From a virus (lineage: Duplodnaviria; Caudoviricetes), in the IMG/VR virus record IMGVR_UViG_3300020440_000022, positions 1-48,466 of that record: DNA of 48,466 bases; one strand, given 5' to 3'. The translations under genes were made by a program, and so were the position numbers. Below are positions 4,054 to 34,427 of the stretch, in pieces. Under the pieces are notes generated by a model. That model ran no database searches. It worked only from the letters and a program-made list of their open reading frames with translations, and was not told the DNA's origin. Numbering within the stretch: position 1 is the first letter of the stretch; every line of letters starts with the position of its first letter.

Positions 4054-4371
4054 ATGCACTATTTGGTAAGAACACTTGCAAACACAGGGTGCTCTAATCT
4101 CACAGAATGGAATGCTTCAGCTGTAATCAGTGAAATGACACAAATTTACAATGACTACACAGGCAACAAAGTTGAAATGCTAACAGGTGCTTCATCAAAC
4201 AATTCAACCATGAGAGTGACATTTACTTTTAACACAGCTGAAGAGCTAACAGCTTTTGCCAACTATTTTAGAACATCACGTGATAGACGTGAAGCACATG
4301 GTATTACTCTTGTTGATGCTATTGATTTTTCAGAAGATGCATTATATAACACTTGGTTAAGTAGTTATTAG
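4054..4371 (+). CDS. Hypothetical protein
   Basis: 105-aa ORF with AGGAG RBS, an upstream ATAAATA and a hairpin right after the stop. Confidence 0.7.
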   Translation: MHYLVRTLANTGCSNLTEWNASAVISEMTQIYNDYTGNKVEMLTGASSNNSTMRVTFTFNTAEELTAFANYFRTSRDRREAHGITLVDAIDFSEDALYNTWLSSY

Positions 4372-4398
4372 AAATGAGCTAAAGCTCATTTGTTTTTT
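4372..4398 (+). terminator. Probable intrinsic terminator, possibly bidirectional
   Basis: AAATGAGC-TAAA-GCTCATTT hairpin (4372-4391) followed by GTTTTTT, immediately after the 4371 stop and between convergent transcription units. Confidence 0.55.
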
Positions 4399-4430
4399 CG
4401 CTTGCGCTCAAAAACATTTTTATTTACAAT

Positions 4431-4778
4431 AAAGTGCGAAGCACTTTTAGCTTCATGTAGATTGTTTCAGTCAGACGGAACCTACTAGCGGCTCCATCAT
4501 CTCGAAAACTTCATGTGAGTTCGTCACAGCCGAGACCGGAAGTAGGTGTTTGACTTTGCTACTGGGCTCTGACCTTTCCCAACCTACGTCGACATCACGA
4601 AAAAATTTGCAAAACCGCTTTACCGCTTCGCGGATTTCTTCGCTATCCCCCGCTTCGTTCCTAGTGCTAGGGGTTTTCGTAGCATACAGCCTGTTGAACT
4701 TCTCCACACCCATCGGCGATATTTCACGCAGAATCTTGGAGGATCGAGCAGCCTCGATCAAACAGTGTTCTTGTTTGC
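4431..4778 (-). ncRNA. Candidate large structured non-coding RNA of unknown class
   Basis: About 50% GC by hand count (4471-4770) in an AT-rich genome; ten or more complementary segments including crossing (pseudoknot) pairings; two stems close with G-U pairs only on the minus strand. Boundaries approximate. Confidence 0.6.
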
Positions 4779-5204
4779 CTATTTGTGTTCTAGTAGTGCT
4801 TTGCGCAATTTATCAGAACCGCCAACTCTAACATTAATAATACCATTATAATACTCATCCGTCTCTAACACACGGCGGTCAAATTGCTCTCTAGCCTCTA
4901 TGTAACTCATTTCTGCTCTGCTTTTGCAAAAATAAAGTATTTCCCTTGTGAATTTGTCCGGGCCTAACTCGTCTACGTCTGCCTGCAATCTATCTGAAGA
5001 TCCCCAATAGTCTCTCCAGTCACTTTCTTTGAAGCCTCGTCTTTTGTTTTTTCTGCCTTTGAGTGGTGGCTTTGTGGTTTTGAATTTTGATAGTTTTTTG
5101 CCTATGTACTTTTGTCCAGAGATAGTGTTTGTTATGAGATATACAAATCCTTCGTAATCATCTGATACTTCATTAATCTCTTTACCTTGGTAAGTCCATT
5201 GCAT
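4779..5204 (-). CDS. Stand-alone GIY-YIG family endonuclease
   Basis: GFVYLITN...KYIGKK (GIY-YIG), DYWGSS, FTREIL, conserved Glu helix (YIEAREQF) and YYN; no C-terminal NUMOD DNA-binding repeats. Confidence 0.8.
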   Translation of the reverse strand: MQWTYQGKEINEVSDDYEGFVYLITNTISGQKYIGKKLSKFKTTKPPLKGRKNKRRGFKESDWRDYWGSSDRLQADVDELGPDKFTREILYFCKSRAEMSYIEAREQFDRRVLETDEYYNGIINVRVGGSDKLRKALLEHK

Positions 5205-5212
5205 ATGGATAC

Positions 5213-5425
5213 TTAACCAACTTGATCAGTTTCTGCCTTCGGTTTTGAATTGTGTTTGTGATGTATTTCGTCCATTCTTTGTTTTGCAAGAGATCTTATT
5301 TCACGCAACCATTTTCTTGCTTCTCTGTGAGTCCGCACAGAATTTCTTACTTCAAATTTTTCACTTGCTTTGAAATACTCCATATATGCCTTTGTTAGTC
5401 TATCGTGGGTATCGTCGTTAATCAT
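5213..5425 (-). CDS. Small basic helical protein (possibly Hc1/histone-H1-like phage family)
   Basis: The ATG at 5425 overlaps the end of the upstream gene and is a better start than the track's 5470; YFKASEKFE...REARKWLREIRSLAKQRMDEI resembles small phage Hc1-like helical hairpins. Family call is weak. Confidence 0.55.
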   Translation of the reverse strand: MINDDTHDRLTKAYMEYFKASEKFEVRNSVRTHREARKWLREIRSLAKQRMDEIHHKHNSKPKAETDQVG

Positions 5426-5693
5426 GCCTAATTTTATTACTAATATACTTGAAAATTGGAATAAATGCAAGTCCTAATAAACAACCAAACGCAGTTCCAA
5501 ATGCTAGATCCCAACTTGCAGTAGTTGCACCGCCTAGAAAATCACTTAATGAATTTCCTAAACCAGCACCTACAACAGTTCCAACACCTTGTTGAAATTG
5601 GCTGGGTAGATATTTTTCTACACTCAGTCCGGTCATTGCACCTAAAATCATAATAGCATTATCTACAATGCCAAAAATGATAAAATCAATCAT
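5418..5693 (-). CDS. Small membrane protein, TMEM65/VIT1-CCC1-like
   Basis: Three hydrophobic Gly-rich helices with FGIVDNAIMI, GLGNSLSD and GCLLG, matching the order of motifs I recall in TMEM65 (FGFxDNxIMI, ALGNxxSD, GCxLG). AAGGA RBS. Confidence 0.65.
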   Translation of the reverse strand: MIDFIIFGIVDNAIMILGAMTGLSVEKYLPSQFQQGVGTVVGAGLGNSLSDFLGGATTASWDLAFGTAFGCLLGLAFIPIFKYISNKIRHD

Positions 5694-18000: not shown

Positions 18001-18555
18001 GTGCTGTTTGGAGATAAAGCAGAATTGGATCTACAAGCAAAATTTAAAATCGTAAAAAATCCTGATTTAGTGTTAAATGATAATGATATTAAATCAAGAG
18101 TAATTTCTTCTATTAACAAATTCTTTGCATTAGAAAATTGGGACTTTGGTGATAAGTTTTACTTTAGTGAATTGAGCACATATGTGATGAATGATTTAGC
18201 ACCTGATATTGTAACATTTATAATCGTGCCAGAACAAGTTACACAAGTATTTGGTTCTTTGTATGAAATAAAATCAGAGGTAGATGAAATTTTTATTTCA
18301 GGAGCAACGGTTGATGATTTAGAAATCATAGACGCAATAACCGCAACAAGATTACAAGCACAAGGTAATGTTACTACAGCAGGAAACACTATCAATGTAG
18401 GAATACAAAGTTCACCTAACACAACATCATCTCCTGCAATAACAACCAGTGGAACAGTTTCATCGAGCAGTTCGAGTAGTTCAAGTGGCAGTGGAGGTTC
18501 AGGTGGTAGTGGATCAGGTGGTAGTGGATCCGGCGGCGGAGGATATGGTTACTAA
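15001..18555 (+). CDS. gp6: Baseplate wedge subunit, gp6-like
   Basis: DFDNLR..MINYL, LIDLIAY, ENYLELAERRESVLRLARLLSYNP, FSDGVFG, TQNRLITGEDY; Ser/Gly-rich C-terminal tail; TAAATA at 14978-14983. Confidence 0.9.
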   Translation: MSSTDRQNRLLVAEDWKRVYQSYKNADFQSYDFDNLRRTMINYLRENYPEDFNDYIESSEYLALIDLIAYLGQNLAFRMDLNARENYLELAERRESVLRLARLLSYNPKRNQCANGLLKIASVSTTEEVKDSNNINLKDQTILWNDSSNTNWYEQFIKVLNRALPVNGTYGRPVKKETVAGVPTEQYRFNSTNADVPAFSFNKTIDGNTTRFEIVSSDINNGAINEEAPFPGNNFAFLYRDDGQGASSSNSGFFCHFRQGTLDQGTFAITNPSTNQTVSIDATNINNSDLWLYKLDSFGNEDELWTRVDSVEGNNVVYNSLSKNIRNVYSVLTRINDRISVIFSDGVFGNLPQGTFRAYYRTSRNAKIVIKPRDMRGVSIDIPYLSRTGKIEQISLIFELQYTVDNASVSETNANIRSRAPATYYTQNRLITGEDYQIGPLSSSQEIIKVKSVNRTSSGLSRYFDLTDATGKYSKTNLFGTDGVLYKEVYNKKTKFNFSTSIDVQGTILNIIEPILGSKEVYNFYSSQFPKIDTTDLNITWTQNTKDTNVSTGYFKNVNDIRQFLGQFTTSVLKLIKPGASIKLQAPAGKHFMPDGTLMNGAADHLNSRTYKWVKVVSVNGNGTLDNTDGTGPVTFNDVIPTSAQLVEIKPTVSKKLEDDVKTQLIDQTVAYLTYGLRFDRDLGQWRIITANNLNATGDFSIGKTGDITGQQLDASWLLKFTTDGNTYTIDYKGSRYVFESDKEIRFYYDSSDKIYNNLTGKIVKDKITVLNNNNKPDSVEKFTVDFDWEITKEFRDKEGYVNSKKIEVTFFDQDDDGVVDDPQIFEEIVQETNNPTTKYIFNKRYTTSDGVEDFNYISKDELKPIVLQNKGFLGALSQYDNGQVFYFIDEDIFEVYNGTTVTTSLTTEYKAYIGREGLRFQYVHAADDSSRIDPSASNIIDCYMLTRSYDTQFRQYLDGTLATKPLQPSSDALYTAFGQQLNNIKSLSDEIIYSPVKYRVLFGDKAELDLQAKFKIVKNPDLVLNDNDIKSRVISSINKFFALENWDFGDKFYFSELSTYVMNDLAPDIVTFIIVPEQVTQVFGSLYEIKSEVDEIFISGATVDDLEIIDAITATRLQAQGNVTTAGNTINVGIQSSPNTTSSPAITTSGTVSSSSSSSSSGSGGSGGSGSGGSGSGGGGYGY

Positions 18556-21500
18556 TGGCCTATAACGATAATCAAAATGAACCAGCACTTCCAGCAGGTA
18601 ATGAAAACTATAAAAGAAAAACTGAAAATCATTTACCTCGATATTTTAGGACTAGGTTTAACAAAAAATTTCTACAGTCTACAGTTGACCAATTAACGCA
18701 ACCAGGAGTAGTTGAAAAAATTAATTCATACTATGGTCGTAAAACTGCAAAAGCATATAAAGCAAATGACAATTATGTGGGTGATGTTGATAAGCAAAGG
18801 GAAGACTATCAGCTTGAGCCTGCATCTATAATTAAAGATGAGCTTGGTAATGTAAATTATTATGCTGATTATAACGACTTTACTAATAAATTAAATGCAG
18901 TAGGAAATATAAACAAAGACCATAGTATAGTAAACCAGCAAGAATACTATGCATGGAACCCGCATATTGACTGGGATAAATTTGTAAATTTCAGAGAATA
19001 TTATTGGTTGCCTAGCGGTCCACAACTTATTACAGTTGTCGGTCAAAGCAGAGATATTGAAAGTACGTATTCTTTAGAATTAGCAGATAATGTAGATAAC
19101 GTAACTTATAAGTTTACTCCTGATGGATTAACAAATAATCCTACACTTACTTTGTATCGAGGACAGACTTACAAGTTTGACATAGATGTACCAGGTCATC
19201 CTATTGCGTTTGCTACTAAAAAAAGTTTCACACCGGGAGCATCGGTACTTGTTGAAGCGACAGATGGTATTAGATCTCCAGGAGTTTACGATATTGGATT
19301 ATACGATCAAGAAGGTTTAGTCTATGATGGCGGAGGATATATTGTTGAACCTGCTGAAGCAAGTTTTACAGCAGGCACTTCTCAAAATACATCATTAATT
19401 TATGATACAGGTGTAAAACAGTATAATGACGAAGGAGAAGAACAGTCTGTTGTATATTTAGAAAAAGGTACAATAGAATTTACAGTTCCTGAAACTGCTC
19501 CGGATAGGCTATATTATATCTCAAAAAATGATCCTAATATTTCTGGTTTTATAAGAATCTTTGACATAATAGAAAACACAGAGATAAATGTTGAAAATGA
19601 AATAATAGGAAAGAAAACTTATAAAACTACTGGTGGTTTTGAATTAAGTAACGGAATGCAAGTAGAGTTTGCAGGTAATGTTACTCCTGCAAGTTATGGA
19701 ACTGGACAGTATTTTGTTGAAGGTGTAGGCGATAAAATAAAATTAATCCCTGCAATTAGACTAGAGACTAGCGGTGATTTTACCAAAGACATAGATTTAG
19801 AATTTGATGTTAATGCATTTGATTTTTATCCTTTTGATAAAGCAATTGGCTTTCCTGACAAAAAAGATTACATAGTTATACATAGATCAAGTACAGACGG
19901 TAATCTATGGAGTAGGTATAACAAATGGTTTCATAAAGATGTTATAGAAAAGTCAGCACAAATAAACAACAGAGTTGTTGATATTGATGTTAACGCCAGG
20001 GCAAGTCGACCTATTGTAGAATTTGAACCTGGATTAAAATTATATAATTTTGGCACGCAAACTAAAGATGATGTTGATCTTATAGATAATTTTACAAAAG
20101 ATGCTTTTAGTACAATAGAAGGATCTCAAGGATACAACATTGATGGAGTTGATGTAACAAATGGAATGAGAATTTTGTTTACAGCAGATACTGATTTGCT
20201 TGTCAAAAATAGAATTTATCAAGTTAAATTTATTACAGTTAACAATATTTCGCAAATTACTTTAACTGAAATTGCAGATACTAATCCTATCTTAAATGAA
20301 ACTGTTTTAATTACTAACGGAACTACCAATAGAGGAAAGTATTATTTTTATAATGGCATAGAGTGGAAAGCAACACAAGCCAAGACAAAAGTTAATCAAC
20401 CACCTATGTTTGATTTGTTTGATAAAGACGGAAAAAGTCTATCAGATGCAACAGTATATGCGTCAACTAACTTTATTGGTAACACTGTCTTTGAATATAA
20501 GATTGGTACAGGCAGAAATGACACAGAGTTAGGATTTCCTCTATCATATAGGAATATAGAAAATTCAGGTGATATAGTCTTTAATTTTAAATTATTGAAC
20601 GATAAGTTTGCATACCAAGATCAAAATGAAATAATAGAAATCAATACAGATACAGCATACGTAAGATTGTACGATAGCATAGACAACTTTAGAACAGAAA
20701 ATGGTTGGATTAAGGCTGATAGTTTGAGCAATCAATATGTTTTACGACAGTATGTTTTTGATAACTCAACTAACGACTTTGCAATAGATGTATATGATTC
20801 CGTTGATTTGTCTGATTTATGGATAAGGGTTTACAAAAATAATAAATTACAATTTAGAAGTACAGACTATACTATTGTATCTGACTCTAATAATGACAAA
20901 GCAGTTAGATTTGTAAATGATCTTAAATTAGATGATGTTATACTTCTTAAAACTAAAAGCTCAAAACCAAAAAATGAAAATGGTTTATATGAAATAGTCG
21001 CAAATTTAGAAAAAAATCCTTTAAATGAAAACTTAAATGAATTTACTATAGGAGAAGTAGTAGACCATGTAAGCACTATTGTAGAATCATACAATAATTT
21101 CCAAGGAGTGTTTCCAGGTGTAAGTAATTTAAGAGATGCAGGACCAATAAGTAAATTAGGCACGAAATTTGTAAAGCATAGTAGTCCGTTTAATTTACCT
21201 ACCTATCATTTAGTAGACAAAAGTGCAAACATTGTTTTAGCATTAGATTTTGCTAGAATTGAATATTCTAAATTCAAAAGAAGATTTTTAGAAACAGCTG
21301 ATACTTTAGGATATGATGGTCCTATAAAAAGTACGATAGAAGAAATATTTAAAGAACTAAACAAAGATAAGACCACCAGTATGCCGTTCTTCTTTAGTGA
21401 TATGGCGGCCACACTAGGATCAATAAAAACTTCCTATACTATAGAAGATCCTGACGAACAATATTTTCCGTTATCTACAGCATTTTTTAAAAATAAAGCC

Positions 21501-24500
21501 AGTAAAAGATCTGTACTTGTTTATAACAATAATATACAACTTACCTATGGTAAAGATTATACTTTTGATGACGATGGATTTATAAACTATACCGGAACAA
21601 AAAGCCAAGATGATATTGTTGATATTTACGAATATGAAAATACAAACGGTAGTTTTATTCCGCCTACCCCGACAAAATTAGGTCTGTATCCATCATATAT
21701 ACCTAAACTCTATATAGATGATAGTGTCAATGCAGAAGCACCAGCAGACGAAAGTGGACCTTGGAAGATTTATGCATCAGACGATAAAGGAAAATTAGGT
21801 TGGTATTATCCTTTATATGCTGACATACAAGATGCAAAAACAAGAGATACAGAACTAGGTGGTTCTGGACAAGCTCATGCTCATAAATTTGACGGTCTTA
21901 ATAGAACTTTCTTTATGCCTAATAGTTCTATGAATCATGCCACTAGAGATAATGAATCAATATCTGAATGGCCACAAGGACTAACAGTAATACAAGGTCA
22001 TGACGGAAGCAGATATACTGCCTTCAAAGATTATAGAGATGAATTATTACTAGATTTAGAATTAAGAATATACAATAACCTTAAACAACCTTATGATACC
22101 ACGCTCTTTGATCTAGCAGATTTTGTGCCAGGTCAGTATAGACCTAACAGTATTAACAAAACTGATTTCGATACAGCTATCACAGCAGATTTTGTCAAAT
22201 GGGCAGAATCTATTAATGCTGATTATACATCAAACACTTACTTTGATAGAAACAATACATTTTCCTTTAATTATAAAGGTATGAACTTTACCACTGGTGG
22301 AAGGCTACCTGGATGGTGGAGAGAAATATATAGATTAGCGTATGATACTGATCGTCCACATACACATCCTTGGGAAATGCTAGGATTCAACGACAAACCT
22401 AGTTGGTGGGAAGATGTATATGGACCAGCACCCTATACAAGAAATAATGAGCTATTATGGAATGATATCGAAAACGGCTTTATAAAAGAACCAAATAAAA
22501 AGTTAATTGTAAATAGCAAATTTGCAAGGCCGGGTATAAGTTCACATCAACCTGTTGACGAATCTGGTAATTTGTTAAGTCCTAATGATTCGGGCATTGT
22601 TACAGATTTTAGTATAAGTGGCGCAAGAGACAATTATAGTTATGGTGATGGTGCCCCTGTAGAAAATGGATATAAAAGAACAAGTGAATATCCTTTCAGT
22701 ATAATAAAAAGTATTGTAATAAACAGACCGAATAGGGTTTTTGCAACAATTTTTGATAGACAAAGACAAACACGCAATAGTGCAGGACAACTACAATATA
22801 ATAGTAGCGAAAACCAAATCATTCTTAAAAATATTATATTTCCTAGTACAAAAAATGATGCAACTCAGATTTTTACAAGCGGGTTGGTAAATTATATTGC
22901 TGACTATATGAGTTCTGATAGTTTACAAACATATCAATCATATAAAGATAATTTAAAAAGTATAACTAATCAGATTGGTTTTAAGGTTGGCGGATTTACT
23001 GATAAAGAGAAGTTTAGATTACTTTTAGATAGCAGAACTCCACTTAACCAAGGTAATGTTTTTGTCCCAGATGAAAACTATAAAATTTTCCTAAATGAAA
23101 GCTCAGCCTTAAAAGAAGTAAGTTACAGTGGAGTAATTATTGAAAAACTTGCACAAGGATTTATTATAAGAGGCTATGATACAAGAACACCTAGTTTCAC
23201 ATATTTCAAACCTATTAAACTTCAAAATGATCCATTCATAAATGTTGGAGGGGTTAGTGAACGGTTTGTAGAATATACACAAGGTAGAACATATACTACA
23301 GGAACATTAGTTTCTTTTAATGGTGCATATTATAGGGCAAAAGAAAATTTAACAAATGTCGCTGAATTTGATAGTAGTAAGTTTGCTAGATTGCCTTCAC
23401 TACCTGTTGTAGGAGGCGTTTCTGCACAGTTGCGTAGACAATATGAATCTACACCTTCTATTTTAAAGTACGGTGAAGTTCTACAGTCTTTTCAAGACGT
23501 AGTTGACTTTTTATTAGGATATGGTGCTCATTTAGAATATTTAGGATTTCAATTTGAAAACTTTGACGATGCTGAAACTGAAGTACAAAACTGGAACACA
23601 GCCGCAAGACAATTCCTGTTTTGGACTTCACAAAATTGGAGAGCCGGCACTGTATTAACTATTTCACCTAATGCTGAAAATTTAAAATTTAAATCTCAAT
23701 ATTCAACTGTAGGTAATGTCTTTGATAGTATGTTTGGATATAGTATTCTTAAATCAGATGGTAAGCCACTGGAACAACAGTTTGTCAAAGTAAGTAAAAA
23801 CAGTGACAACGAATTTGAAATGTATACAGTAAACACAGCAGACGGAATATATGCTGTAAGATTACCATTAATTCAAAAAGAACATATTGTATTATTAGAT
23901 AATTCTACTGTATTTGGTGACGTTATTTACGATGTTGCACCTGGTTATAGGCAGGAAAGAATAAGAGTTTTAGGTTATAAAACCATAGATTGGAACGGTA
24001 GTCTAAACATTCCTGGATTCTTTTATGATGATGCCAAACCTACTCAATGGACGCCTTGGCAGGATTATTCTGTAGGTGATATTGTAAAATACAAAGAGTT
24101 TTTCTACACTGCTGATACAAAAATAGCAGGTTCAGAAGTTTTCGAAGAAAATAAATGGATTAGATTAGCTAATAAACCTAATGCAGGATTATATTCAAAC
24201 TTTGATTATAGAATTAATCAATTTACAGATTTTTATGATTTAGATAGCGACAACTTTGATACAGAACAACAGAGACTTGCACAGCATTTGATAGGTTATC
24301 AAAAAAGGCAATATCTTGAAAATATTATAAATGATGACGTCAGCCAATATAAGTTTTATCAAGGATTCATACAAGAAAAAGGAACACGCAACAGTCTTAC
24401 AAAATTGTTTGATGCACTAGCAAGTGCAGACAAAGATAGTTTAGAATTTTTTGAAGAATGGGCTATCAAAGATGGTCAGTATGGTGCAAGTGAAGGATTT

Positions 24501-27500
24501 GACGAAGTTGAATATAAATTAGATGAATCTAAATTTAGATTAGTTCCACAGCCTATTTTACTAACAGATAATATTACAGGACAAGAGACTGATCTACTTT
24601 ATAGAATACCTACTTATCAAACATATTTAAAACCAAAAAATTATGATCATTCGCCGTTTCCAGAGAAATATGTAGGCACTGGTTATATTAAAGATGCAGG
24701 ATATGTAAATTACGAAGATGTAGATTTTGTAATTGGACAATATTCTGAAATACTACAAATTGATATACAAAAAGTAAAAGAAAGTGATTATATATGGGTC
24801 CAAAACTATGGTTATAAATCTTGGAATGTATTACAGCATATTAACAGTGGATATTCAATAGAAAAAATAGAACCAGATAATACTGATATAAAAATCACAA
24901 TCAATGCAACTCCTACAGATATTAAAAAGGGTGATATCATCGGTATATTTGATATTATTAGCACATCTGTAACAGAGGATTCTACCACTGTTGCAACCAC
25001 TACTGTTGATCCTTTAAAAGGATTTTATAAAATCAAGGATGTAACACTTAATACAATTACTGTTGAAAATTCAGAGGCTGTAGATGTAATAGAAAATATA
25101 GAAGGAACACTTACTAAATTTATTGAATGTAGAGTTAGCAATCTAAAAGATGCAAACATATTTTCTCAAAATCACATTCAGCCTCAAGAAAATATATGGA
25201 TAGATGATAATGATTTTGCAAATTGGACAGTCCTAAAGAATGCAAACAAATTTGATTTACTACAAGAAGTTTCAAATAACAATAGTGGTACTGCGATAAA
25301 TTTTGCAAAAGCATTTGCTGTTAATGATAGAAATACAATCCTTGCAGTTGGTTTACCTAATAAAGATGACGGTCAAGTTTTAATTTATCAAAGAGCAACA
25401 AATAGTTTAAATTATGTATTGAACCAAGTCATATTTGCTCCAGAAAATATTGCAGACCCTAATCAAGAATTTGGTTTTAGTATAGATTTAAGTGACGATG
25501 GAAAATATTTAATTGTAGGTTCACCGTCTGCATCAAAGGTTAAGACAAAATACAGGGGTGGTTTTGAACCTACAGCAGATTATGCGCAAGGTGATATAGT
25601 CAAAAAAGACGATCAATTATACGAAGCTATAAACCCTATTATTGGCGCAGATGATAATATTGAATTTGTTAGTTTTTCTAGTGTTGCAGACATACTATTC
25701 GATTTGAATCTTGACGAAGAAGACAGCGAACAGATACCTATGTTACTAACAGGAAATTATCCTTTTGAAAATGTAACAGCTGATCACTTTTTAGTAAGAG
25801 CTCCTAAAACACAATATGAAGGATCCGGCGAAGGTGATGAAATAAAGTTAGCTTGGAACCCACTAACCAACGCCAATCAGACACAGCTTAATCTTGTTAA
25901 CACATTACCGTTTGGCGGGAATGTGTCTTATCTTTCTGAAAACTACCTACAGTCACAACATACCATAAGCAAAAAAATTGATGCAATACTATTTGTTGAC
26001 CAGTCAACAGTTATTCCTAATATTGGTGATACTGTAACAACTCAAGGCGCAGTGGCTAATGTTGCATATACCTTCAACGTAGGAGCACAGGTTACAATTT
26101 ATGTGAATCAAGTCAATGGTGAGTTTCCTGCTAATAACAGTTTGTTTATAGAAGGAAATGATTTTGTTGGTGAATATGTTTTATCAGGACCTAACGAACA
26201 AACAGCTACAAGCACACAATTAGGAGGATATTGGTTTGTACAATCAAGTAATCCCTATAGTGTAACTACAACAACATCTGATGTTGCTAGAGGATTAGTT
26301 ATATATGACCTTATTCCTGATAGCAGTGTAACTGGAAATTATTACTATAATATTTTAGACTTTGAAACTTCCACTATAGATAGTGAAAACACAGACCATA
26401 GTTACGTAAGAGTTCTGTCATTTCAAGGAAGTCCAGGACCATACGGCACTACATCTCCTACCTTGAGTCAATATTGGCTAGCTAGAGCTCCTAAAGCAGT
26501 TACAGATTCTCTGACAGCAGGAGATAAAATTAATTTTCACTGGAATGAAATGAAAAAGACCGTGTCAAAGATGACGCTAGTGAACAATGTTACAGTTGTT
26601 AAAGGTGAAGTTATAACTCAAGATGTTACTGGAGCAACAGCTACCGTATTTCAAAATGCAACTAATAGTAAAGAAGTTTTATTACAAAATATAACAGGAA
26701 CATTTTCAACAGTAAATTTATTAAACGGAAGCATCAGCGGCAGATTGTTTACTAATGTATTTGCTCTTCCAGTAGAAGATACACTTGTACAGCCTTCTGA
26801 CATAGGGCTTTCATACACTTTGACTAACAAAGAACAGACTGTATTTGATATTTGGGACGGATATATCGATTATGAAAATTTATTCTTTGAAGCCGGTCAA
26901 CCGTTAGAACCGAGAATAGGCCAAACACTACAAGACATGAACACGGGTGCGACAGCAGAGGTGGTATTCTATCAAAGAGACTTAAACTCTGTTAGAGTAT
27001 ATGTAAAAAATGTCCAAGAAGGCACAGTTGATCCGATAAAAGGTTTTGTTGGCGGAGGTTGGAGTAGAGGTGATGATTTTGGCAATGCTGCTGAAATACA
27101 AATGTTAGCCTTTCCAGGCGGACCTAATCCAGATGAATATGGCAGAGTTGATATATACACTATTGATCGACCTATAGGACAAGTTGATAAAGTAAGTTTA
27201 GGTTATACTCCAGACGGCATAGGTAAATTGGTAGTATTTGATACTGGATCAAATATTTCTTTACCAACAACAAATGAAATTAAAGATATAGAATACTGGT
27301 TGTATACCAAGACCACAGTATTAGGAGTACCGAGAGGTGCAAATGTTCCAGCACCTGATAATTTGGATTATATTACAAAATATTTTATTCCTACATCTAC
27401 AAATGGATATCAAAGCAATTATCAAAACGAGGGAATGTATTCTATCTATGAAAGACTGTCTACTGGTAGATACGAACCTGTTAATTCTTATATAGGACAA

Positions 27501-30500
27501 ATTTCAGACGAAAACACATACACAGGTTATAATGTCCAAATTAGGAAGAACAATGACATTTATAGAGGTTACATAGGACAACCAGGACCTCAAGATAGTT
27601 CGGGAATAAGTCTAAATGATACACCTGGTAAAATACTTTTCATTAAAAAAGGCATAGAGAACAATAATACATATAATTGGGAATACGCAAGAAACAAAAA
27701 ATTTAGAGGAGAGTTTTCTTCTACAACAGAATATTTTCAAAACGATATTGTTTATCTAAACGATCCGCAAGGTACATTGTACAATGCTATTACTAATATT
27801 CAACCTGGTGAATTTGATGCAACATTATGGGATAGCACAGATGACCTTATAGATTATGTTGGTTACATTCCTAATAATACAGGTTTGAAGGTTATAAATG
27901 ATAGTTCGCAAGATAGTGTTCTCGATCAAAGTGAAATGTTTGATTTTGCGAGTAGTTTTGATGTAAGTAAAAACGGTGAAGTTTTATTAGCACAAGTTAA
28001 GTATTTGACAGTGCCTAATATTGTTGCTGTTTATAGAATCAAAGATGGACATTATCAGTTTAGTCAAAATATAGAAGCTGAAACAGTTGGTTCACAGTTT
28101 GGCCATAAGGTACAGATTAGTGATGACGGAAAAATGATTGCTATATCTGCTCCGTATGATGACACTAATTTTGATGATCAAGGCAAGGTTTATATTTACA
28201 AACAAAAAAATGGTGTGTTTGAATTAGTGCAAAAGCTATCTAGTCCGGTTGACCTGTCATCTCAACAGTTTGGTAGTAACATAGACTTTGATGGCAATAA
28301 TATTGCAATAACTGCAAAAAATGCAGATTCATTTATTGAAACTACATTTGATAATAAATCTACAATACTTGATCAAGGTTTTACCAATCTTAAAAACTTT
28401 ACCGAAGATACAGGAATAGTCTACTTGTATCAATTAATTAATGACACTTTTGTTTATGGCCAACCTTTGCAGTACAATAACAAGTACGGTGGTGTGTTAC
28501 GTTTTGGTGAGAATATAAAATTACAAAATAATCATATATATGTAGGTTTGCCTGCTGTACAAAGTGATGATGATTATATAGGAACACTAGTTGATTTTAG
28601 AATTGCTGAAAATAAAAATATATTTGAAGTACATAGATCAGCGAAAAGCACAGTAAATTTAGAAAAAATTAAACGTGTTATACTTTATAACACAAAAAGT
28701 AAAAAACTTTTGACTTATCTAGATTACATAGATCCTATTCAAGGAAAAATAGCCGGTCCAGCTGAAGAAAATTTAAGATATAAACTTTATTATGACCCTG
28801 CTTATTATACAAATGTTACAGATGGAACTAGTGCTACTAAATCTGATGCATTTTGGGGTAACACTCAAGTGGGTCAATTGTGGTGGGATCTAACAAATGC
28901 TAAATTTGTAAATCCTTATCAAGATGACATATTTTATAGCGTAGCAAATTGGAATAAACTAGCAGACACAAACTCAATTGACATTTACGAATGGGTAGAA
29001 TCAAATATACTTCCTGCCGAGTGGGACAATATTGCAGACACTGCTGAAGGAACACCTCTAGGTATAAGTGGATTAAGTAAATATGGTAATAATGCATATG
29101 TACAGAAACAAGTTTTTGATAGTGTTTCTCAATCTTTTAGCAACAAGTACTATTTCTGGGTAAAGAATAAAAAAATAAAACCAAATACAGAGTTTAGAAC
29201 ACTGTCAGCAGAAGCAGTAGCAAAATTAATTTCAAATCCAGCTGATCAAGGTTATAAATTTGTATCGTTTGTTACTTCAAATAGTTTCACCATACATAAT
29301 TGCGATTCTTTATTAGAAGATAATGATGTAGCTTTAAGTGTGCAGTATTGGACTATAGATAATCAAAATATAAACATTCATAATCAGTACCAAATTATTA
29401 CAGATGGTTTAGAAACAAGTGTTCCTAACAGAGATATAGAGAATAAATGGGTTGATAGTCTTGTAGGTTATGATATGTACGGAAGAGAAGTACCTGATCC
29501 TACACTTTCAGAAAAAGAAAAATACGGTACATTGTTTAAACCTAGACAATCTTGGTTTGTTAACAGAGAAGAGGCATTAAAGCAATACATTGAAAGAGTT
29601 AATAGAATACTAAAAACCAATTTAATTGTTGATAATAAAGATATTTCAGAATTACAGCGTCAAGAAATAGTACCTGATAGTAGTTTAAATTTATACGACA
29701 CTACAGTTGACACAGTTTCTGATTTAGAATTTATTGGAGTAGCTAAAGCAAAGCAAGCAGAAATACAACTAGTGATAGAAAATGGAACTGTTGTAGATAC
29801 TTTGATATTGGATCCTGGTAGAGGGTATCTAGTAGCACCATCATTTACAATAAACGGTACAGGAACTGACCTTGAATTAAATATTACAATTAATAATTTA
29901 GGTGTTATTACAAATGTTGATATTACAAATGGCGGCAAAAACTTTAGTCCAAACGATAGTATAACATTACGTAAGTATGCAGTCCTAGTAAATGCCGATG
30001 AAAATATTCAAGGAAGATGGGCTTTATACGAACGTGCAGGAAACAGTTGGTCTAGAATAAGAAGCCAAAGTTTTAATTGTAATAATTATTGGGATTATGC
30101 AGATTGGTATGCACCAGAGTTTAGCGAATCTACTAAAATTGACAATATAATTGATAGATCATATGAATTGCAAACTGTAAGTGATAATATAGGAGACATA
30201 ACAAAAATTAACAATGTTGGTTCCGGAGGATGGTTGCTGTTAAGAAAGATAGACAACCAAGAGAACGTTGACTACACAGTAAATTATGAAACTATTGGTA
30301 GACAAAATGGCACTATACAATTTAAAATTTCTATATTTGATACTACCGAATCTCTTACAGGTTTTGATGTAACTAGTTTTGACATTAGATTCTTTGATAG
30401 TGTGCCTACAAATGAAACCAGAATAATAATCAATGCTATAAAAAATGATTTATTCACAGAAGAACTTAAAGTAGAATATAATAAGTTATTCTTTGCTAGT

Positions 30501-33500
30501 TTAAGATATGTATTATCTGAACAGCCATTTGTTGACTGGATGTTCAAAACAAGTTTTGTAAAAGCTAAACACAATGTAGGAAACTTAAGAGAAGATATTA
30601 CATTTAACAATGATAATTTACCTAGTTATGAGGAATATATTAATGAAGTTAAACCATTCAAAACAAAACTGAGAGAATATTTAAGTTCCTATGAAAGAAT
30701 AGATAATTCTCAAAGTAGAATAACTGATTTTGATTTAGCACCAACATATAATGCTTCTGATAATGCAATAAGTCCTATAAGAACACAAGTTATAGATAAT
30801 AGTATTGTTGGTTTAGCAGATGATTTAAATAGTTATCCTAATAAAAACTGGTCAGATAGTGTAGGATTTGTAGTTAAAGAAATAAACGTTGCAAAGGCAG
30901 GACAGGGATACTCAAGTGCGCCTCAGATTATTATTTCGGGCGGTGGCGGCACAGGAGCCAAAGCAGTTGCGAAGTTAGGAAGAGGAAACGGTGTTACATC
31001 TATTGAAGTAATTAATAGCGGTAGTGGATATATTTCAGCTCCTACTATTACTATAAATGGAAATATAACTGAAGGCGGCACCGAAGCAAAAGCAAGTGTA
31101 GTCATTGGACAGTCATTACCGAGAACTATTCACACGTTAGTAAAGTTTGATAGGACTACAGGAAATTATCTAATTACTACATTAGGTGAAACGCAAACAT
31201 TTATTGGTTCCGGATCAAAATATATATTTGATTTAGAATGGCCAATGGATCTACGCAAAAGTGAAATATCAGTTAGTGTAGACAACATTGTTTTATTAAA
31301 CAGTCAGTACACATATGAAAATATTTTAGACAACTCTAAAGGTTATGATAGATTCTTTGGCAGAATAACTCTTACAGAACCTGCTAAAAATAACAGCAGT
31401 GTAATTGTTCAATACAAAAAAGACATAAATCTATTGCAAGCACAAGATAGAATTAATCTAGCATACAATCCCACAACAGGACAGTTTGGAAAGGATCTAG
31501 GACAACTAATAGAAGGTATAGATTATGGCGGAGTAGAAGTAAAAAGTTTTGACTTTGGCGGATTAACCGGTTGGGATAGTGCTCCATGGTTTACAGGAGA
31601 ATATGATACTTACGATACTACTTATGAAGATGAAATAATAACACTTGATGGTTCTACAAATATTATTACATTGAATAGTGCTTTGGAAAATAATGTTGTA
31701 TACAATGTTTATAAGAATGGTATAAGATTAGATGATCCTGATTGGACAGATGACTCTACGCAATTTACTAATCCTAATGCTGTTATGCGTAGCATTGTAG
31801 GCAACGGATCACAAACTACAATTAATATAGGTGAACTTGGTATATCTGGAGTTGCTGATGATACATTTATTATTAGAAAATCTACAAGTGATGGTAGTTT
31901 CCTACCAACCAACATTAATTTTGATACATTAATTACAGGCGGCACTTTAGATTATACAAACGCAACCGGACTAGCATCTGAAGATATTAACATTGACGGT
32001 GACGGATTCTTTACTCCATTAGCAAATGGCGGCCCAGAAGAAGTTATGCCAGGGCAGGTATTTGATACTCTTGATCTTAAAGTTTACGAAAGACCTACCG
32101 GAGGTGCCTCTACAATAACAAGTAGAAATTATACAGGTAACGGAATTAGAACAGTATTTGATATTGGAACCGGTCCTATTACAAAAAATAATCTGCTAGT
32201 AAAAGTGAATAGCACAGTAAAGAAAATAGATACTGACTATACAATTGACTTTGATAATAAAACAGTAACATTTACATCTGCTCCGGCAATCAACTCAACA
32301 GTTTCTTTATTAAGTATGGGATATGCAGGAGAAAATATCTTGGATATTGATTCTTTTGTAAGTGACGGTTCAACTGTTGACTTTTTAACAAACATTACAT
32401 ATTCTGATAATGTAAAAGCACTTGTAACTATAGAAGGTGTTGAAATACCACATGATATTGTAAAAGCAGATAATTCATACTTGAAACCAGGAAACATTAT
32501 AATACGATTTGCAGAAGCTCCTGCTTTAGATAAGATCGTTAATTTTGGTCTATTCATAGGACAAACACAAAACTATAGTGTAGTTACAATAGACGAATTT
32601 GAAAGTGACGGAAGTACAACTTCTTATTCTCTTACTACTACACCATTTTCTCAAACACCTACAGAATGGTATACTCTTGTAACAATAAATGATCATGTGT
32701 TAAATGCAGGATACAATGAAATCTTTACAATTTCTTCTACTAGAGAATATAGGCTGAAGAAATGGCAAGTCCCATTAGGAACATTATCAAATAAACAAAT
32801 CAAAGTTTATATTAATAATATTGAAAGACAATATATTAAGGATTGGTCTTTTAGTAGTGCAGGAGAATTTGATCCAACTATTCCTGCAAGTCAACAGGCT
32901 GGAAGCACAATTACTCTGTCAAGAACAGCTGGATCACCAGGTGATGAATTAAGAGTGTTTATTTTAGGATTAGACGATAGCACTGGTTCTGGCGGTGATT
33001 ATCGGTATGGATATTTTGACGCCGACGGTGACTTTATATCTACTCCTGGAGTATTACATATTGCAAAGAATTATGCAGTAGGGGATATAATAAAGGTTAC
33101 TCAATTTAGTAATCATAACTCCCAAGGAATAGATAGACAGAGTTTTGACGTTAAAGAAAAAACAGAAATATTAAAAGGAACTATAGAAGGTGAACAAGTT
33201 TTTGCACTTGACGGAAGTACCGCTGAATTAGAGTTATTTCCATTAAGCGATAGAGTGAAATATGCTGTATTTCTAAATGATATAAGAATTGATGATATTA
33301 ATTTTGGAACTGGAAATACTGTTTTGAATCCAAATGCAGTAATGAAAACAATAGAAGGTGCAGGACAAACAGTATTTAATTTAGATAATAATAATGTATC
33401 TGCAGATGTAGGAGACATTATAAAGATAAAACCTGTAGAAATAATATATACTCCAACAGAAGATACTGATGATTACTATGAATTAAGACAGTTGCGTAAC

Positions 33501-34427
33501 GGGATAATTCCTTTGCGTAAATCAGCAGTTGATGATCAATATGTTTGGGTAATAAAGAATGGTAACTTGTTAAGTCCTAGTGTAGATTATGTGCTTACTG
33601 AATCTAAACAAAGTATAAAACTTGTAAGCCCTCTTGCAGAAGATGACACGGTTGAAACAATACATTTTGCAAATAAGATATTGCAACAAAAAGTAGGCTG
33701 GCGCCAGTTTAAAGATGTATTGAATAGAAATCATTACAAACGTATTAACGGAACATTCAATTATACACTTGCTGAAGATTTACATTGGTGGTCCAAATCC
33801 ATAGTTCTAGATACTACTGATGGACTACCAAGTCCTTCAATTGATACAAAAACACCTGGTGTAGTCTTTATTGATGGAGAAAGAATAGAATATTTCGTTA
33901 AAGACGGTAAACAGTTAAAACAACTACGTAGAGGTACACTAGGTACAGGGGTGAAAAACATGTATTCTGCAGGAACAGAACTTTATGATCAAAACATAGC
34001 AGAATCACTACCGTACAAAGATGAAATATTAACAACAATATTTACTGCTGATGGAACAACTAAAACATATGAATTAGATTTTACACCAAATAGCATCAAT
34101 GAATTTGAGGTATTTGTAGCAGGTCGCAGATTAAGAAAAACTGCACTCCAGTCTTATCAATTAGATACAGATTTAAGGACTACATATGCTGCAACAGGAG
34201 AACAAATAAGTCAAGATTCTCCTGAAGGCGATATAACATTACCGGCAGAGTTTAGTATTAATAATGGAAATGAGCTTACATTGACTGATTTTCCAGCAGA
34301 AAATCAAAAAGTGATAGTAATTAGGAAACAGGGTAAATTGTGGTCACCGGCTGGTACTGCGTTAGTTGATAGTGATACAGATGTAGCTAAATTCGTACGT
34401 GCCGCACAGCCTGACTTGCCAGGATAA
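18555..34427 (+). CDS. Giant (5290 aa) baseplate/structural protein, gp7-like with adhesion-type domains
   Basis: Follows gp6 with TAATG coupling; LPRYFRT..NKKFL and FIQEKGT..SL..LF wedge-like motifs; FG-GAP-like blades, CBM5/12-like aromatic repeats, GxGYxxAP repeats and DG(S/T)T beta-sandwich repeats. Confidence 0.8.
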   Translation: MAYNDNQNEPALPAGNENYKRKTENHLPRYFRTRFNKKFLQSTVDQLTQPGVVEKINSYYGRKTAKAYKANDNYVGDVDKQREDYQLEPASIIKDELGNVNYYADYNDFTNKLNAVGNINKDHSIVNQQEYYAWNPHIDWDKFVNFREYYWLPSGPQLITVVGQSRDIESTYSLELADNVDNVTYKFTPDGLTNNPTLTLYRGQTYKFDIDVPGHPIAFATKKSFTPGASVLVEATDGIRSPGVYDIGLYDQEGLVYDGGGYIVEPAEASFTAGTSQNTSLIYDTGVKQYNDEGEEQSVVYLEKGTIEFTVPETAPDRLYYISKNDPNISGFIRIFDIIENTEINVENEIIGKKTYKTTGGFELSNGMQVEFAGNVTPASYGTGQYFVEGVGDKIKLIPAIRLETSGDFTKDIDLEFDVNAFDFYPFDKAIGFPDKKDYIVIHRSSTDGNLWSRYNKWFHKDVIEKSAQINNRVVDIDVNARASRPIVEFEPGLKLYNFGTQTKDDVDLIDNFTKDAFSTIEGSQGYNIDGVDVTNGMRILFTADTDLLVKNRIYQVKFITVNNISQITLTEIADTNPILNETVLITNGTTNRGKYYFYNGIEWKATQAKTKVNQPPMFDLFDKDGKSLSDATVYASTNFIGNTVFEYKIGTGRNDTELGFPLSYRNIENSGDIVFNFKLLNDKFAYQDQNEIIEINTDTAYVRLYDSIDNFRTENGWIKADSLSNQYVLRQYVFDNSTNDFAIDVYDSVDLSDLWIRVYKNNKLQFRSTDYTIVSDSNNDKAVRFVNDLKLDDVILLKTKSSKPKNENGLYEIVANLEKNPLNENLNEFTIGEVVDHVSTIVESYNNFQGVFPGVSNLRDAGPISKLGTKFVKHSSPFNLPTYHLVDKSANIVLALDFARIEYSKFKRRFLETADTLGYDGPIKSTIEEIFKELNKDKTTSMPFFFSDMAATLGSIKTSYTIEDPDEQYFPLSTAFFKNKASKRSVLVYNNNIQLTYGKDYTFDDDGFINYTGTKSQDDIVDIYEYENTNGSFIPPTPTKLGLYPSYIPKLYIDDSVNAEAPADESGPWKIYASDDKGKLGWYYPLYADIQDAKTRDTELGGSGQAHAHKFDGLNRTFFMPNSSMNHATRDNESISEWPQGLTVIQGHDGSRYTAFKDYRDELLLDLELRIYNNLKQPYDTTLFDLADFVPGQYRPNSINKTDFDTAITADFVKWAESINADYTSNTYFDRNNTFSFNYKGMNFTTGGRLPGWWREIYRLAYDTDRPHTHPWEMLGFNDKPSWWEDVYGPAPYTRNNELLWNDIENGFIKEPNKKLIVNSKFARPGISSHQPVDESGNLLSPNDSGIVTDFSISGARDNYSYGDGAPVENGYKRTSEYPFSIIKSIVINRPNRVFATIFDRQRQTRNSAGQLQYNSSENQIILKNIIFPSTKNDATQIFTSGLVNYIADYMSSDSLQTYQSYKDNLKSITNQIGFKVGGFTDKEKFRLLLDSRTPLNQGNVFVPDENYKIFLNESSALKEVSYSGVIIEKLAQGFIIRGYDTRTPSFTYFKPIKLQNDPFINVGGVSERFVEYTQGRTYTTGTLVSFNGAYYRAKENLTNVAEFDSSKFARLPSLPVVGGVSAQLRRQYESTPSILKYGEVLQSFQDVVDFLLGYGAHLEYLGFQFENFDDAETEVQNWNTAARQFLFWTSQNWRAGTVLTISPNAENLKFKSQYSTVGNVFDSMFGYSILKSDGKPLEQQFVKVSKNSDNEFEMYTVNTADGIYAVRLPLIQKEHIVLLDNSTVFGDVIYDVAPGYRQERIRVLGYKTIDWNGSLNIPGFFYDDAKPTQWTPWQDYSVGDIVKYKEFFYTADTKIAGSEVFEENKWIRLANKPNAGLYSNFDYRINQFTDFYDLDSDNFDTEQQRLAQHLIGYQKRQYLENIINDDVSQYKFYQGFIQEKGTRNSLTKLFDALASADKDSLEFFEEWAIKDGQYGASEGFDEVEYKLDESKFRLVPQPILLTDNITGQETDLLYRIPTYQTYLKPKNYDHSPFPEKYVGTGYIKDAGYVNYEDVDFVIGQYSEILQIDIQKVKESDYIWVQNYGYKSWNVLQHINSGYSIEKIEPDNTDIKITINATPTDIKKGDIIGIFDIISTSVTEDSTTVATTTVDPLKGFYKIKDVTLNTITVENSEAVDVIENIEGTLTKFIECRVSNLKDANIFSQNHIQPQENIWIDDNDFANWTVLKNANKFDLLQEVSNNNSGTAINFAKAFAVNDRNTILAVGLPNKDDGQVLIYQRATNSLNYVLNQVIFAPENIADPNQEFGFSIDLSDDGKYLIVGSPSASKVKTKYRGGFEPTADYAQGDIVKKDDQLYEAINPIIGADDNIEFVSFSSVADILFDLNLDEEDSEQIPMLLTGNYPFENVTADHFLVRAPKTQYEGSGEGDEIKLAWNPLTNANQTQLNLVNTLPFGGNVSYLSENYLQSQHTISKKIDAILFVDQSTVIPNIGDTVTTQGAVANVAYTFNVGAQVTIYVNQVNGEFPANNSLFIEGNDFVGEYVLSGPNEQTATSTQLGGYWFVQSSNPYSVTTTTSDVARGLVIYDLIPDSSVTGNYYYNILDFETSTIDSENTDHSYVRVLSFQGSPGPYGTTSPTLSQYWLARAPKAVTDSLTAGDKINFHWNEMKKTVSKMTLVNNVTVVKGEVITQDVTGATATVFQNATNSKEVLLQNITGTFSTVNLLNGSISGRLFTNVFALPVEDTLVQPSDIGLSYTLTNKEQTVFDIWDGYIDYENLFFEAGQPLEPRIGQTLQDMNTGATAEVVFYQRDLNSVRVYVKNVQEGTVDPIKGFVGGGWSRGDDFGNAAEIQMLAFPGGPNPDEYGRVDIYTIDRPIGQVDKVSLGYTPDGIGKLVVFDTGSNISLPTTNEIKDIEYWLYTKTTVLGVPRGANVPAPDNLDYITKYFIPTSTNGYQSNYQNEGMYSIYERLSTGRYEPVNSYIGQISDENTYTGYNVQIRKNNDIYRGYIGQPGPQDSSGISLNDTPGKILFIKKGIENNNTYNWEYARNKKFRGEFSSTTEYFQNDIVYLNDPQGTLYNAITNIQPGEFDATLWDSTDDLIDYVGYIPNNTGLKVINDSSQDSVLDQSEMFDFASSFDVSKNGEVLLAQVKYLTVPNIVAVYRIKDGHYQFSQNIEAETVGSQFGHKVQISDDGKMIAISAPYDDTNFDDQGKVYIYKQKNGVFELVQKLSSPVDLSSQQFGSNIDFDGNNIAITAKNADSFIETTFDNKSTILDQGFTNLKNFTEDTGIVYLYQLINDTFVYGQPLQYNNKYGGVLRFGENIKLQNNHIYVGLPAVQSDDDYIGTLVDFRIAENKNIFEVHRSAKSTVNLEKIKRVILYNTKSKKLLTYLDYIDPIQGKIAGPAEENLRYKLYYDPAYYTNVTDGTSATKSDAFWGNTQVGQLWWDLTNAKFVNPYQDDIFYSVANWNKLADTNSIDIYEWVESNILPAEWDNIADTAEGTPLGISGLSKYGNNAYVQKQVFDSVSQSFSNKYYFWVKNKKIKPNTEFRTLSAEAVAKLISNPADQGYKFVSFVTSNSFTIHNCDSLLEDNDVALSVQYWTIDNQNINIHNQYQIITDGLETSVPNRDIENKWVDSLVGYDMYGREVPDPTLSEKEKYGTLFKPRQSWFVNREEALKQYIERVNRILKTNLIVDNKDISELQRQEIVPDSSLNLYDTTVDTVSDLEFIGVAKAKQAEIQLVIENGTVVDTLILDPGRGYLVAPSFTINGTGTDLELNITINNLGVITNVDITNGGKNFSPNDSITLRKYAVLVNADENIQGRWALYERAGNSWSRIRSQSFNCNNYWDYADWYAPEFSESTKIDNIIDRSYELQTVSDNIGDITKINNVGSGGWLLLRKIDNQENVDYTVNYETIGRQNGTIQFKISIFDTTESLTGFDVTSFDIRFFDSVPTNETRIIINAIKNDLFTEELKVEYNKLFFASLRYVLSEQPFVDWMFKTSFVKAKHNVGNLREDITFNNDNLPSYEEYINEVKPFKTKLREYLSSYERIDNSQSRITDFDLAPTYNASDNAISPIRTQVIDNSIVGLADDLNSYPNKNWSDSVGFVVKEINVAKAGQGYSSAPQIIISGGGGTGAKAVAKLGRGNGVTSIEVINSGSGYISAPTITINGNITEGGTEAKASVVIGQSLPRTIHTLVKFDRTTGNYLITTLGETQTFIGSGSKYIFDLEWPMDLRKSEISVSVDNIVLLNSQYTYENILDNSKGYDRFFGRITLTEPAKNNSSVIVQYKKDINLLQAQDRINLAYNPTTGQFGKDLGQLIEGIDYGGVEVKSFDFGGLTGWDSAPWFTGEYDTYDTTYEDEIITLDGSTNIITLNSALENNVVYNVYKNGIRLDDPDWTDDSTQFTNPNAVMRSIVGNGSQTTINIGELGISGVADDTFIIRKSTSDGSFLPTNINFDTLITGGTLDYTNATGLASEDINIDGDGFFTPLANGGPEEVMPGQVFDTLDLKVYERPTGGASTITSRNYTGNGIRTVFDIGTGPITKNNLLVKVNSTVKKIDTDYTIDFDNKTVTFTSAPAINSTVSLLSMGYAGENILDIDSFVSDGSTVDFLTNITYSDNVKALVTIEGVEIPHDIVKADNSYLKPGNIIIRFAEAPALDKIVNFGLFIGQTQNYSVVTIDEFESDGSTTSYSLTTTPFSQTPTEWYTLVTINDHVLNAGYNEIFTISSTREYRLKKWQVPLGTLSNKQIKVYINNIERQYIKDWSFSSAGEFDPTIPASQQAGSTITLSRTAGSPGDELRVFILGLDDSTGSGGDYRYGYFDADGDFISTPGVLHIAKNYAVGDIIKVTQFSNHNSQGIDRQSFDVKEKTEILKGTIEGEQVFALDGSTAELELFPLSDRVKYAVFLNDIRIDDINFGTGNTVLNPNAVMKTIEGAGQTVFNLDNNNVSADVGDIIKIKPVEIIYTPTEDTDDYYELRQLRNGIIPLRKSAVDDQYVWVIKNGNLLSPSVDYVLTESKQSIKLVSPLAEDDTVETIHFANKILQQKVGWRQFKDVLNRNHYKRINGTFNYTLAEDLHWWSKSIVLDTTDGLPSPSIDTKTPGVVFIDGERIEYFVKDGKQLKQLRRGTLGTGVKNMYSAGTELYDQNIAESLPYKDEILTTIFTADGTTKTYELDFTPNSINEFEVFVAGRRLRKTALQSYQLDTDLRTTYAATGEQISQDSPEGDITLPAEFSINNGNELTLTDFPAENQKVIVIRKQGKLWSPAGTALVDSDTDVAKFVRAAQPDLPG

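Follow-up and report, generated by a model that had tools for sequence, protein, structure and literature searches.

A long intergenic element behind gp46 and a small nuclease gene

The window analysed here, the whole stretch of 48,466 nt at positions 1 to 48,466 of IMG/VR virus record IMGVR_UViG_3300020440_000022, is a fragment of a T4-like phage in which Pfam and PHROG searches identified a late sigma factor, gp47, gp46 and baseplate genes. The nearest cultured relatives of its gp46 are found in jumbo phages of the PA5oct kind (49% identity) and the Serratia BF kind (35%). The gp46 operon also holds a gene for a TMEM65-like membrane protein of 91 aa (5418-5693, minus strand; PF10507, E 9e-7), and an ORF of 5290 aa at 18555-34427 on the plus strand probably encodes a baseplate or tail protein. 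A SegE-like stand-alone GIY-YIG nuclease of 141 aa is encoded at 4779..5204 on the minus strand (PF19835, E 5e-34; phrog_447). The label 'NAD synthetase' carried by PHROG 447 is a misannotation of this small GIY-YIG protein, and a PDB sequence search with the nuclease returned nothing meaningful.

A sequence-only reading of this DNA had drawn attention to the one long intergenic stretch in the window. With a spurious ORF excluded, the gap indeed runs from 4372 to 4778, the next largest being 80 nt, and the GC content put at about 50% by that reading came to 48.6% in the element compared with 34.3% window-wide. We rejected a protein-coding gene at 4471-4761 (96 codons) because the frame is open in only 1 of 36 homologues and has no Pfam or PHROG match. 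What occupies the gap is instead a predicted structured RNA of about 330 nt (4451..4780, minus strand), delimited by homologue alignment and pair counts. It is taken to run, on the minus strand, from the conserved sequence AGGC, which overlaps the nuclease stop codon, as far as the second of two repeat boxes. An RNA start within the coding tail of the nuclease found no support: across 125 genes, synonymous variation in codons 107-133 does not drop.

A related element, in several subtypes, lies behind most of the best 80 GIY-YIG relatives. Pattern scans recovered 107 B-pattern and 88 window-type loci, together with at least 120 loci of the A type, for an estimated total of about 430, and at least 120 of the C type, for an estimated total of about 1100. 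The conserved element is real and is common to hundreds of uncultured T4-like phages, in which it sits behind gp46 and a small nuclease gene. At six loci (L009, L033, L064, L072, L098 and L107) additional sequence, which in several cases looks like a short ORF, separates the nuclease gene from the RNA and leaves the RNA undisturbed. Many of the contigs at L001-L080 stop within or just past the RNA, and a conserved element that breaks metagenome assemblies probably explains these ends.

The slot after gp46 varies in content: among the loci compared (window 4779-5204; L206, L212, L227, L239, L255, L262; L568; L569) it holds a GIY-YIG nuclease, a PD-(D/E)XK nuclease, a RusA-like resolvase (PA5oct) or endonuclease VII (XaC1). 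This alternation suggests that the small GIY-YIG protein stands in for a Holliday-junction resolvase.

Homologues support a pseudoknotted minus-strand fold

Folding of the lone window sequence was not significant against shuffles (z -1.44 on the minus strand and -0.76 on the plus strand), so support for the fold rests on homologues. We aligned the window with 35 of 44 non-redundant window-type elements, giving 36 sequences. Over these, the fold from the sequence-only reading was 91% paired and a revised fold, which leaves out a hypervariable insert, 97%, compared with 25-44% for slid controls. The sequence-only reading had proposed a large, pseudoknotted, minus-strand structured RNA, and each of the complementary segments it listed is present in the DNA at the positions given. 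In outline this proposal is well supported by covariation, by one-sided G-U changes and by GNRA loops on the minus strand. Most of its stems and one of its pseudoknots covary; three of its helices are not conserved, and two of these are replaced by better-supported ones.

The element opens with an exchangeable 5' domain (4696..4770, minus strand) that contains the hairpin 4742-59 and the stem 4737-41/4702-06. Both had been proposed: 4742-48/4753-59 holds in the 36 window-type sequences, and 4702-06/4737-41 holds and covaries, with some alignment noise. The domain is closed by 4767-70/4696-99, which is 100% paired with 12 compensated cells and takes the place of a proposed long-range helix, 4696-4700/4518-22, that is only 76% paired. 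Another suggested helix, 4760-64/4772-76, is 70% paired. The following hairpin (4647..4673, minus strand) presents a conserved large loop, GCA..GGAACGA, that in our estimation resembles T-loop motifs; its stem, 4670-73/4647-50, is 100% paired with covariation and supersedes the proposed 4660-63/4668-71, which is 79% paired. The stem read at 4597-4643 exists in the window as part of a region that the alignment of homologues identifies as a hypervariable hairpin insert (4597..4643, minus strand). In the window, 12 nt of this insert match the phiX174 F-G intergenic hairpin region, and the minimal insert in other homologues repeats a motif of the tail described below.

The core consists of three stems, 4589-93/4529-33, 4582-87/4542-47 and 4578-81/4563-66 (4529..4593, minus strand), that are 99-100% paired and almost invariant; the latter two had been predicted from the window. 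Between the two boxes lie a hairpin, 4490-96/4476-82, and the 3' strand of a pseudoknot (4470..4498, minus strand; pair counts). This hairpin is the part of the predicted 4474-82/4490-98 that holds.

Two pseudoknots cross these stems. The first, helix a (4552..4691, minus strand), combines 4688-91/4552-55 with 4679-84/4557-62 and shows wide covariation. Its second segment, already part of the sequence-only reading, forms a helix of 5 bp or more in 43 of the 45 distinct strand pairs present across all A-type cores, compared with 19.8 after shuffling. In the second, pseudoknot b, the loop 4568-73 pairs with 4470-75. This pairing is kept in the homologues, but its strands are invariant apart from C-to-U changes, which yields no compensatory support within the subtype, and they were partly fixed by the search patterns used to collect homologues. 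The counterpart of pseudoknot b in C types occurs in several compensated forms. Judged by these patterns of pairing and change, the knotted element of about 330 bases very likely functions as RNA.

A new subtype of the Polynucleobacter-1 family

No Rfam 15 model for raiA, ROOL, GOLLD, HEARO, RNase P, tmRNA or the group I and II introns matched the window or 20 homologous loci at E values up to 10, and the Rfam scans gave no self-cleaving ribozyme. The earlier statement that hallmarks of tmRNA, RNase P and introns are missing agrees with the Rfam and ARAGORN searches, which gave nothing on the window. We accordingly rejected a tmRNA on the negative ARAGORN result, and set aside resemblances to motifs of RNase P, raiA, twister, group I introns and box C/D RNAs because no model matched. 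The further view that the RNA belongs to no recognised class stands for the window, which has no Rfam match, but does not stand for the family, since sequence ties connect it to the Polynucleobacter-1 RNA motif (RF01718; Weinberg et al. 2010, PMC2864571). When 20 short homologous loci were searched against Rfam, the sole match was RF01718, on one C-type locus.

With its own model, RF01718 matches 20 of 20 C-type loci, in which it corresponds to the 5' domain. The window goes unmatched at the gathering threshold of 37 bits and at E values up to 10. A C-type profile spanning the core, 3' part and tail, on the other hand, matches window positions 4374-4527 (E 2.9e-15) and 73 of 110 A loci, and a window-type profile reaches 16 of the 96 B-pattern loci by way of the 5' domain. 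B and C profiles match each other. The 5' domain of the window is 92-96% identical to that of five B-type loci over 67 nt, which argues that modules have been swapped among subtypes. A B/C core profile did not match the window, where inspection found similar motifs in a different order.

C-type elements resemble the window element in occupying the same genomic slot and in carrying twin boxes and a tail. The window element differs from Polynucleobacter-1 in its 5' domain and core, and its partner for pseudoknot b lies downstream rather than upstream. As far as the available part of PMC2864571 goes, the 2010 alignment ends before the boxes and tail, its long rows reach the C-type core, and no function is stated. 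By homology to the RF01718-bearing C types (3' part and tail), and through B types for the 5' domain, the window element classes as a new subtype of a family that was catalogued in 2010 only in its first third. Searches of the open-access literature found no description of this subtype, of the twin boxes or of the multi-copy jumbo-phage element described below.

BLAST searches of the window, C-type and B-type elements against cultured phages gave no match, nor did the C-type element against plasmids. A GTDB scan returned three matches, each on a phage-like contig inside a MAG. The element-bearing regions concerned (L433, L434 and L432) are in MAGs labelled Neomarinimicrobiota and Crocinitomicaceae and are probably mis-binned; we therefore draw no host from them.

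Twin boxes change in concert

The window was said to carry an 8-nt repeat, and ACATGAAG is present at 4509-4516 and 4451-4458, 58 nt apart. Within it, the 7-mer ACATGAA defines box 1 (4510..4516, minus strand) and box 2 (4452..4458, minus strand), which covary in identity. Box 1 and box 2 agree in all of their first six bases in 160 of 160 A elements, where shuffles average 113, and in 74 of 74 C elements, where they average 16; the shuffles were made within subtype, and relatedness inflates this control. On a tree of 65 C-type rows constructed with the boxes left out, the box label switches at least 26 times (minimum 8) and the boxes stay concordant. Positions -5, +9 and +10 around the boxes also agree above shuffled levels; positions -3 to -1 always differ between the boxes as a consequence of anchoring.

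A 7-nt complement of the box occurs on the same strand in only 1 of 171 elements, and the flanks hold no third copy or complement at any conserved place. Forced identity implies that both boxes share a partner, which would be the template strand of box 2 or antisense RNA from there, and the lack of a same-strand complement points to the element's own template DNA. We infer that box 1, as a predicted internal guide, pairs with its predicted target on the template strand of box 2, a partner that follows automatically, or else with antisense RNA.

A hairpin tail of DNA type

Behind box 2 lie three hairpins (DNA folding z -3.1). The helix proposed at 4431-47 belongs to this separate downstream tail, which had gone unnoticed. 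Hairpin H1 (4431..4447) has a C(GAA)G triloop on the template, or plus, strand, as found by tail folding and loop counts. After an AT-rich spacer, a motif scan placed the ColE1-like motif GAGCGCAAGCG (4409-4399) in H2 (4391..4416, minus strand). H3 (4373..4390) doubles, by terminator scoring, as a candidate plus-strand terminator for the converging gene at 4054-4371. Across homologues, the motif GAGYG-n-ARCG within 200 nt is on the RNA-like strand in 159 of 186 cases and on the template in 2, with none at 200-400 nt. The motif is short, and in its strict form it is also present elsewhere in long records, with ten occurrences in G004 (none behind the RNA) and seven in G001 (one behind the RNA).

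Loops of the C(GNA)G type are especially stable in DNA. Such triloops were found in H1 on the template strand in 108 of 161 cases and in H3 on the other strand in 118 of 194. Among 224 distinct perfect core hairpins, by comparison, GNRA loops numbered 31 on the RNA strand and 2 on the other strand, and C(GNA)G loops 4. The tail loops are thus of DNA type and occur on both strands, whereas the core loops favour GNRA on the RNA strand.

Look-alike elements in cultured jumbo phages and a small phage

In Xanthomonas phage XaC1 the same slot contains a gap with a core like that of the B and C types, twin 7-mers 58 nt apart that enclose a CCC/GGG hairpin, and a tail of hairpins. This element matches 75 cultured jumbo-phage records, with 4-6 places each among the 20 listed. 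Copies lie on one strand at 15, 49, 117, 209 and 303 kb in XaC1, at 30, 93, 175, 259 and 335 kb in Serratia phage BF, and at 1, 114, 199 and 250 kb in Escherichia phage Ecwhy_1. These loci (L573-L590) amount to a non-coding element of about 600 nt in 4-5 dispersed, co-oriented copies per genome, unannotated or lying under doubtful small ORFs. Most of the cultured copies are far from gp46 and the nuclease. Long uncultured records have one copy each.

In XaC1 and BF the 7-mers, in which the search pattern fixed a central CGTC, agree within the copy in 10 of 10 cases, and one copy per genome has switched both (L576 and L587). The base just upstream of the boxes agrees in 14 of 14 cultured copies; in Ecwhy_1 the first box position is mismatched between the boxes in 4 of 4. 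Full profiles matched 0 of 14 cultured copies and a core profile 4 of 14, at E values of 0.06-0.26. The kinship of these look-alikes with the window family is therefore weak by profile and rests on architecture.

In PA5oct, the gap at L568 6340-7500, annotated as several tiny ORFs, shows by eye tail-like hairpins and a B-type-like loop; the boxes and core were not found there. Four published PA5oct ncRNAs are located elsewhere according to the part of PMC7318152 available to us. The gap examined in Atu_ph07 held none of the element's motifs.

A small phage (L431 4900-5300; also L095, L591 and L592) carries an A-type RNA and its tail between tail-fibre and terminase genes, just upstream of the latter and without the GIY-YIG gene. 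The ORFs tested from the tail fibre to the terminase included no recognisable replication gene. Further searches placed all of these cases in one lineage.

Alternative readings of the element

The reading we favour, at a little under an even chance, is that the element specifies an RNA primer that acts in cis through an R-loop at an origin of phage replication. Its most serious competitor is a free structured RNA, either an RNP scaffold or a ribozyme, whose boxes would be recognised by a protein dimer or by an RNA acting in trans and whose tail would be a 3' end and terminator. The near-invariant pseudoknotted core is more elaborate than an R-loop requires, the variable box spacing (49 to 68 nt) suits an RNA, and H1 and H3 score as terminator-like, all of which speak for such a molecule. 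However, its reader would need at least 26 switches of specificity, would have to treat copies within one genome differently and would meet GGATGAA boxes alongside GIY-YIG and PD-(D/E)XK neighbours alike, and the tail loops are of DNA type on both strands. Twin boxes that change in concert, and a tail of DNA type, are easier to reconcile with an RNA that acts on its own DNA than with a free ribozyme or RNP scaffold. We consider a free RNA of either kind unlikely.

An R-loop element acting in cis could also serve another DNA transaction, as a recombination hot spot, packaging start or genome tether. The location beside gp46 and the variable slot for branched-DNA nucleases is consistent with such a role, as are the small-phage copy just upstream of the terminase genes and the dispersed co-oriented copies, which would suit sites of this kind as well. 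Set against this, the ColE1-like motif lies at the strand and distance expected for primosome loading, and most cultured copies are distant from gp46 and the nuclease. We regard this use of an R-loop as distinctly unlikely.

That the element is a folded single-stranded DNA origin with no role for RNA seems improbable. DNA tolerates G-T pairs, and the tail and some inserts resemble primosome sites, but the pseudoknots covary, the core has GNRA loops as opposed to C(GNA)G in the tail, and many unpaired bases are invariant.

Proximity to the nuclease raises the idea of a guide or scaffold RNA for the GIY-YIG protein, in the manner of OMEGA RNAs. Where the available DNA is long enough, which sets aside 42 A-type and 36 B-pattern loci, the GIY-YIG gene immediately precedes the element in 77 of 78 A-type loci, in 65 of 71 B-pattern loci and in 60 of 66 C-type loci. 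Yet a different nuclease fills this place in 6 B-pattern and 3 C loci (the one scanned is PF24608, a PD-(D/E)XK nuclease), and the nuclease is missing at L095 although the element is present. Conversely, the phage Melnitz encodes a 68% identical GIY-YIG protein followed by a 148-nt gap with none of the element's motifs. No variable terminal guide is apparent. These swaps, the Melnitz nuclease without the element and the small-phage element without the nuclease indicate that the GIY-YIG nuclease is the usual but exchangeable neighbour of the RNA and no obligate partner. A guide function is thus very improbable, and we rejected an OMEGA/HEARO-type nuclease RNA, which would be tied to one nuclease family.

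Hardly credible is a template RNA for a reverse transcriptase jumping from box to box, which we would liken to DRT2, or a self-splicing or mobile element with target duplication: direct repeats do flank a short structured region, but none of 5 large records (completeness 95% in one, under 90% in four) had RVT_1 (PF00078), the boxes are internal with conserved parts on either side, and no intron family matched in Rfam.

A possible R-loop primer at a replication origin

On the preferred origin reading, a transcript would arise, probably by read-through from the gp55-gp47-gp46-nuclease operon, and fold. Box 1 would then pair with the template DNA of box 2 and seed a lasting hybrid of RNA with DNA, an R-loop, much like the rG/dC contact of ColE1. 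The 3' end of the RNA would prime leading-strand synthesis, and the opened tail, exposed as single-stranded DNA, would permit loading of helicase and primase through host PriA-type proteins (PMC5778457) or phage proteins. Support for this reading comes from the concordance of the boxes through at least 26 switches, the lack of a same-strand complement and the strand-specific tail motif, and equally from the DNA-type tail loops, the dispersed co-oriented look-alikes and the independence from the nuclease. The RNA and tail have, in addition, moved together into a small phage without a detected replication gene. Consistent with the origin reading, gp59 was not detected in 5 element-bearing records and was detected in Melnitz, a comparison confounded by clade and by incomplete records.

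Other results count against it. In the related 332-kb record G004, a scan of 120 among 189 selected ORFs identified a polymerase, helicase, primase, SSB and UvsX, so it need not rely on a host primosome. Skew at four-fold sites in two long records tracks the coding strand and does not change over at the element; what little skew is left points, if in any direction, to the opposite strand. RNase H turned up in XaC1 and BF and not in three uncultured records, and a search for sigma-70-like promoters found none for the window element. The co-orientation of the cultured copies may follow the majority gene strand. Further points against are the weak profile link to the cultured phages, the first-position mismatch in Ecwhy_1, the occurrences of the strict tail motif away from the RNA in G004 and G001, and the single lineage behind the small-phage case.

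A bolder version of the origin reading appears to us possible, if on balance doubtful: a ribozyme-sized pseudoknotted RNA with a reprogrammable internal guide would clasp the gene that encodes it and set off genome copying, serving as one or several origins across a large jumbo-phage clade that is without the T4 helicase loader, and its invariant core may process the primer end. Literature searches returned no mapped origin for these phages. If the boxes are a guide and target in cis, the family becomes a self-guided origin RNA, which would give a large structured phage RNA a defined job, something that most such RNAs lack. Cultured E. coli jumbo phages with look-alike copies offer a bench system.

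Comparison with known systems

GOLLD, ROOL, raiA, HEARO/omegaRNA, RNase P, tmRNA and the group I and II introns are like the element in size, pseudoknots and phage setting; in sequence, the likenesses between these RNAs and the element extend only to short motifs.

The T4 origins oriF and oriG, which use a middle promoter, a DNA unwinding element and an R-loop primer, differ in that no conserved folded RNA, twin boxes or hairpin tail is described for them in the available part of PMC4412123, and in that gp59 was not detected in element-bearing records. They resemble the present case in belonging to a T4-like phage with several origins and, here, in the AT-rich stretch behind the RNA (PMC4412123). 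R-loops are used both by T4 origins and by ColE1, where an rG stretch of the transcript pairs with a template dC stretch (PMC4412123, PMC5043065).

Relative to ColE1, the predicted guide here is a variable 7-mer instead of a run of G, the core contains pseudoknots and related phages encode a replisome themselves; neither an RNA I-like antisense RNA nor a sigma-70-like promoter of its own was detected for the element. A profile search of ColE1 601-1500 gave no match and hence no RNA II homology. On the RNA II strand of ColE1, some 140 nt beyond the origin, lies GAGCGTAGCGA, a stretch that we take to be the n'-pas primosome site; no paper stating the n'-pas motif was found in a literature search. 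The likeness to ColE1 lies in the arrangement: in both, a structured RNA would pair with its own template, which for the element we deduce from the concerted repeat, and in both a GAGCG..AGCGA motif lies downstream on the displaced strand.
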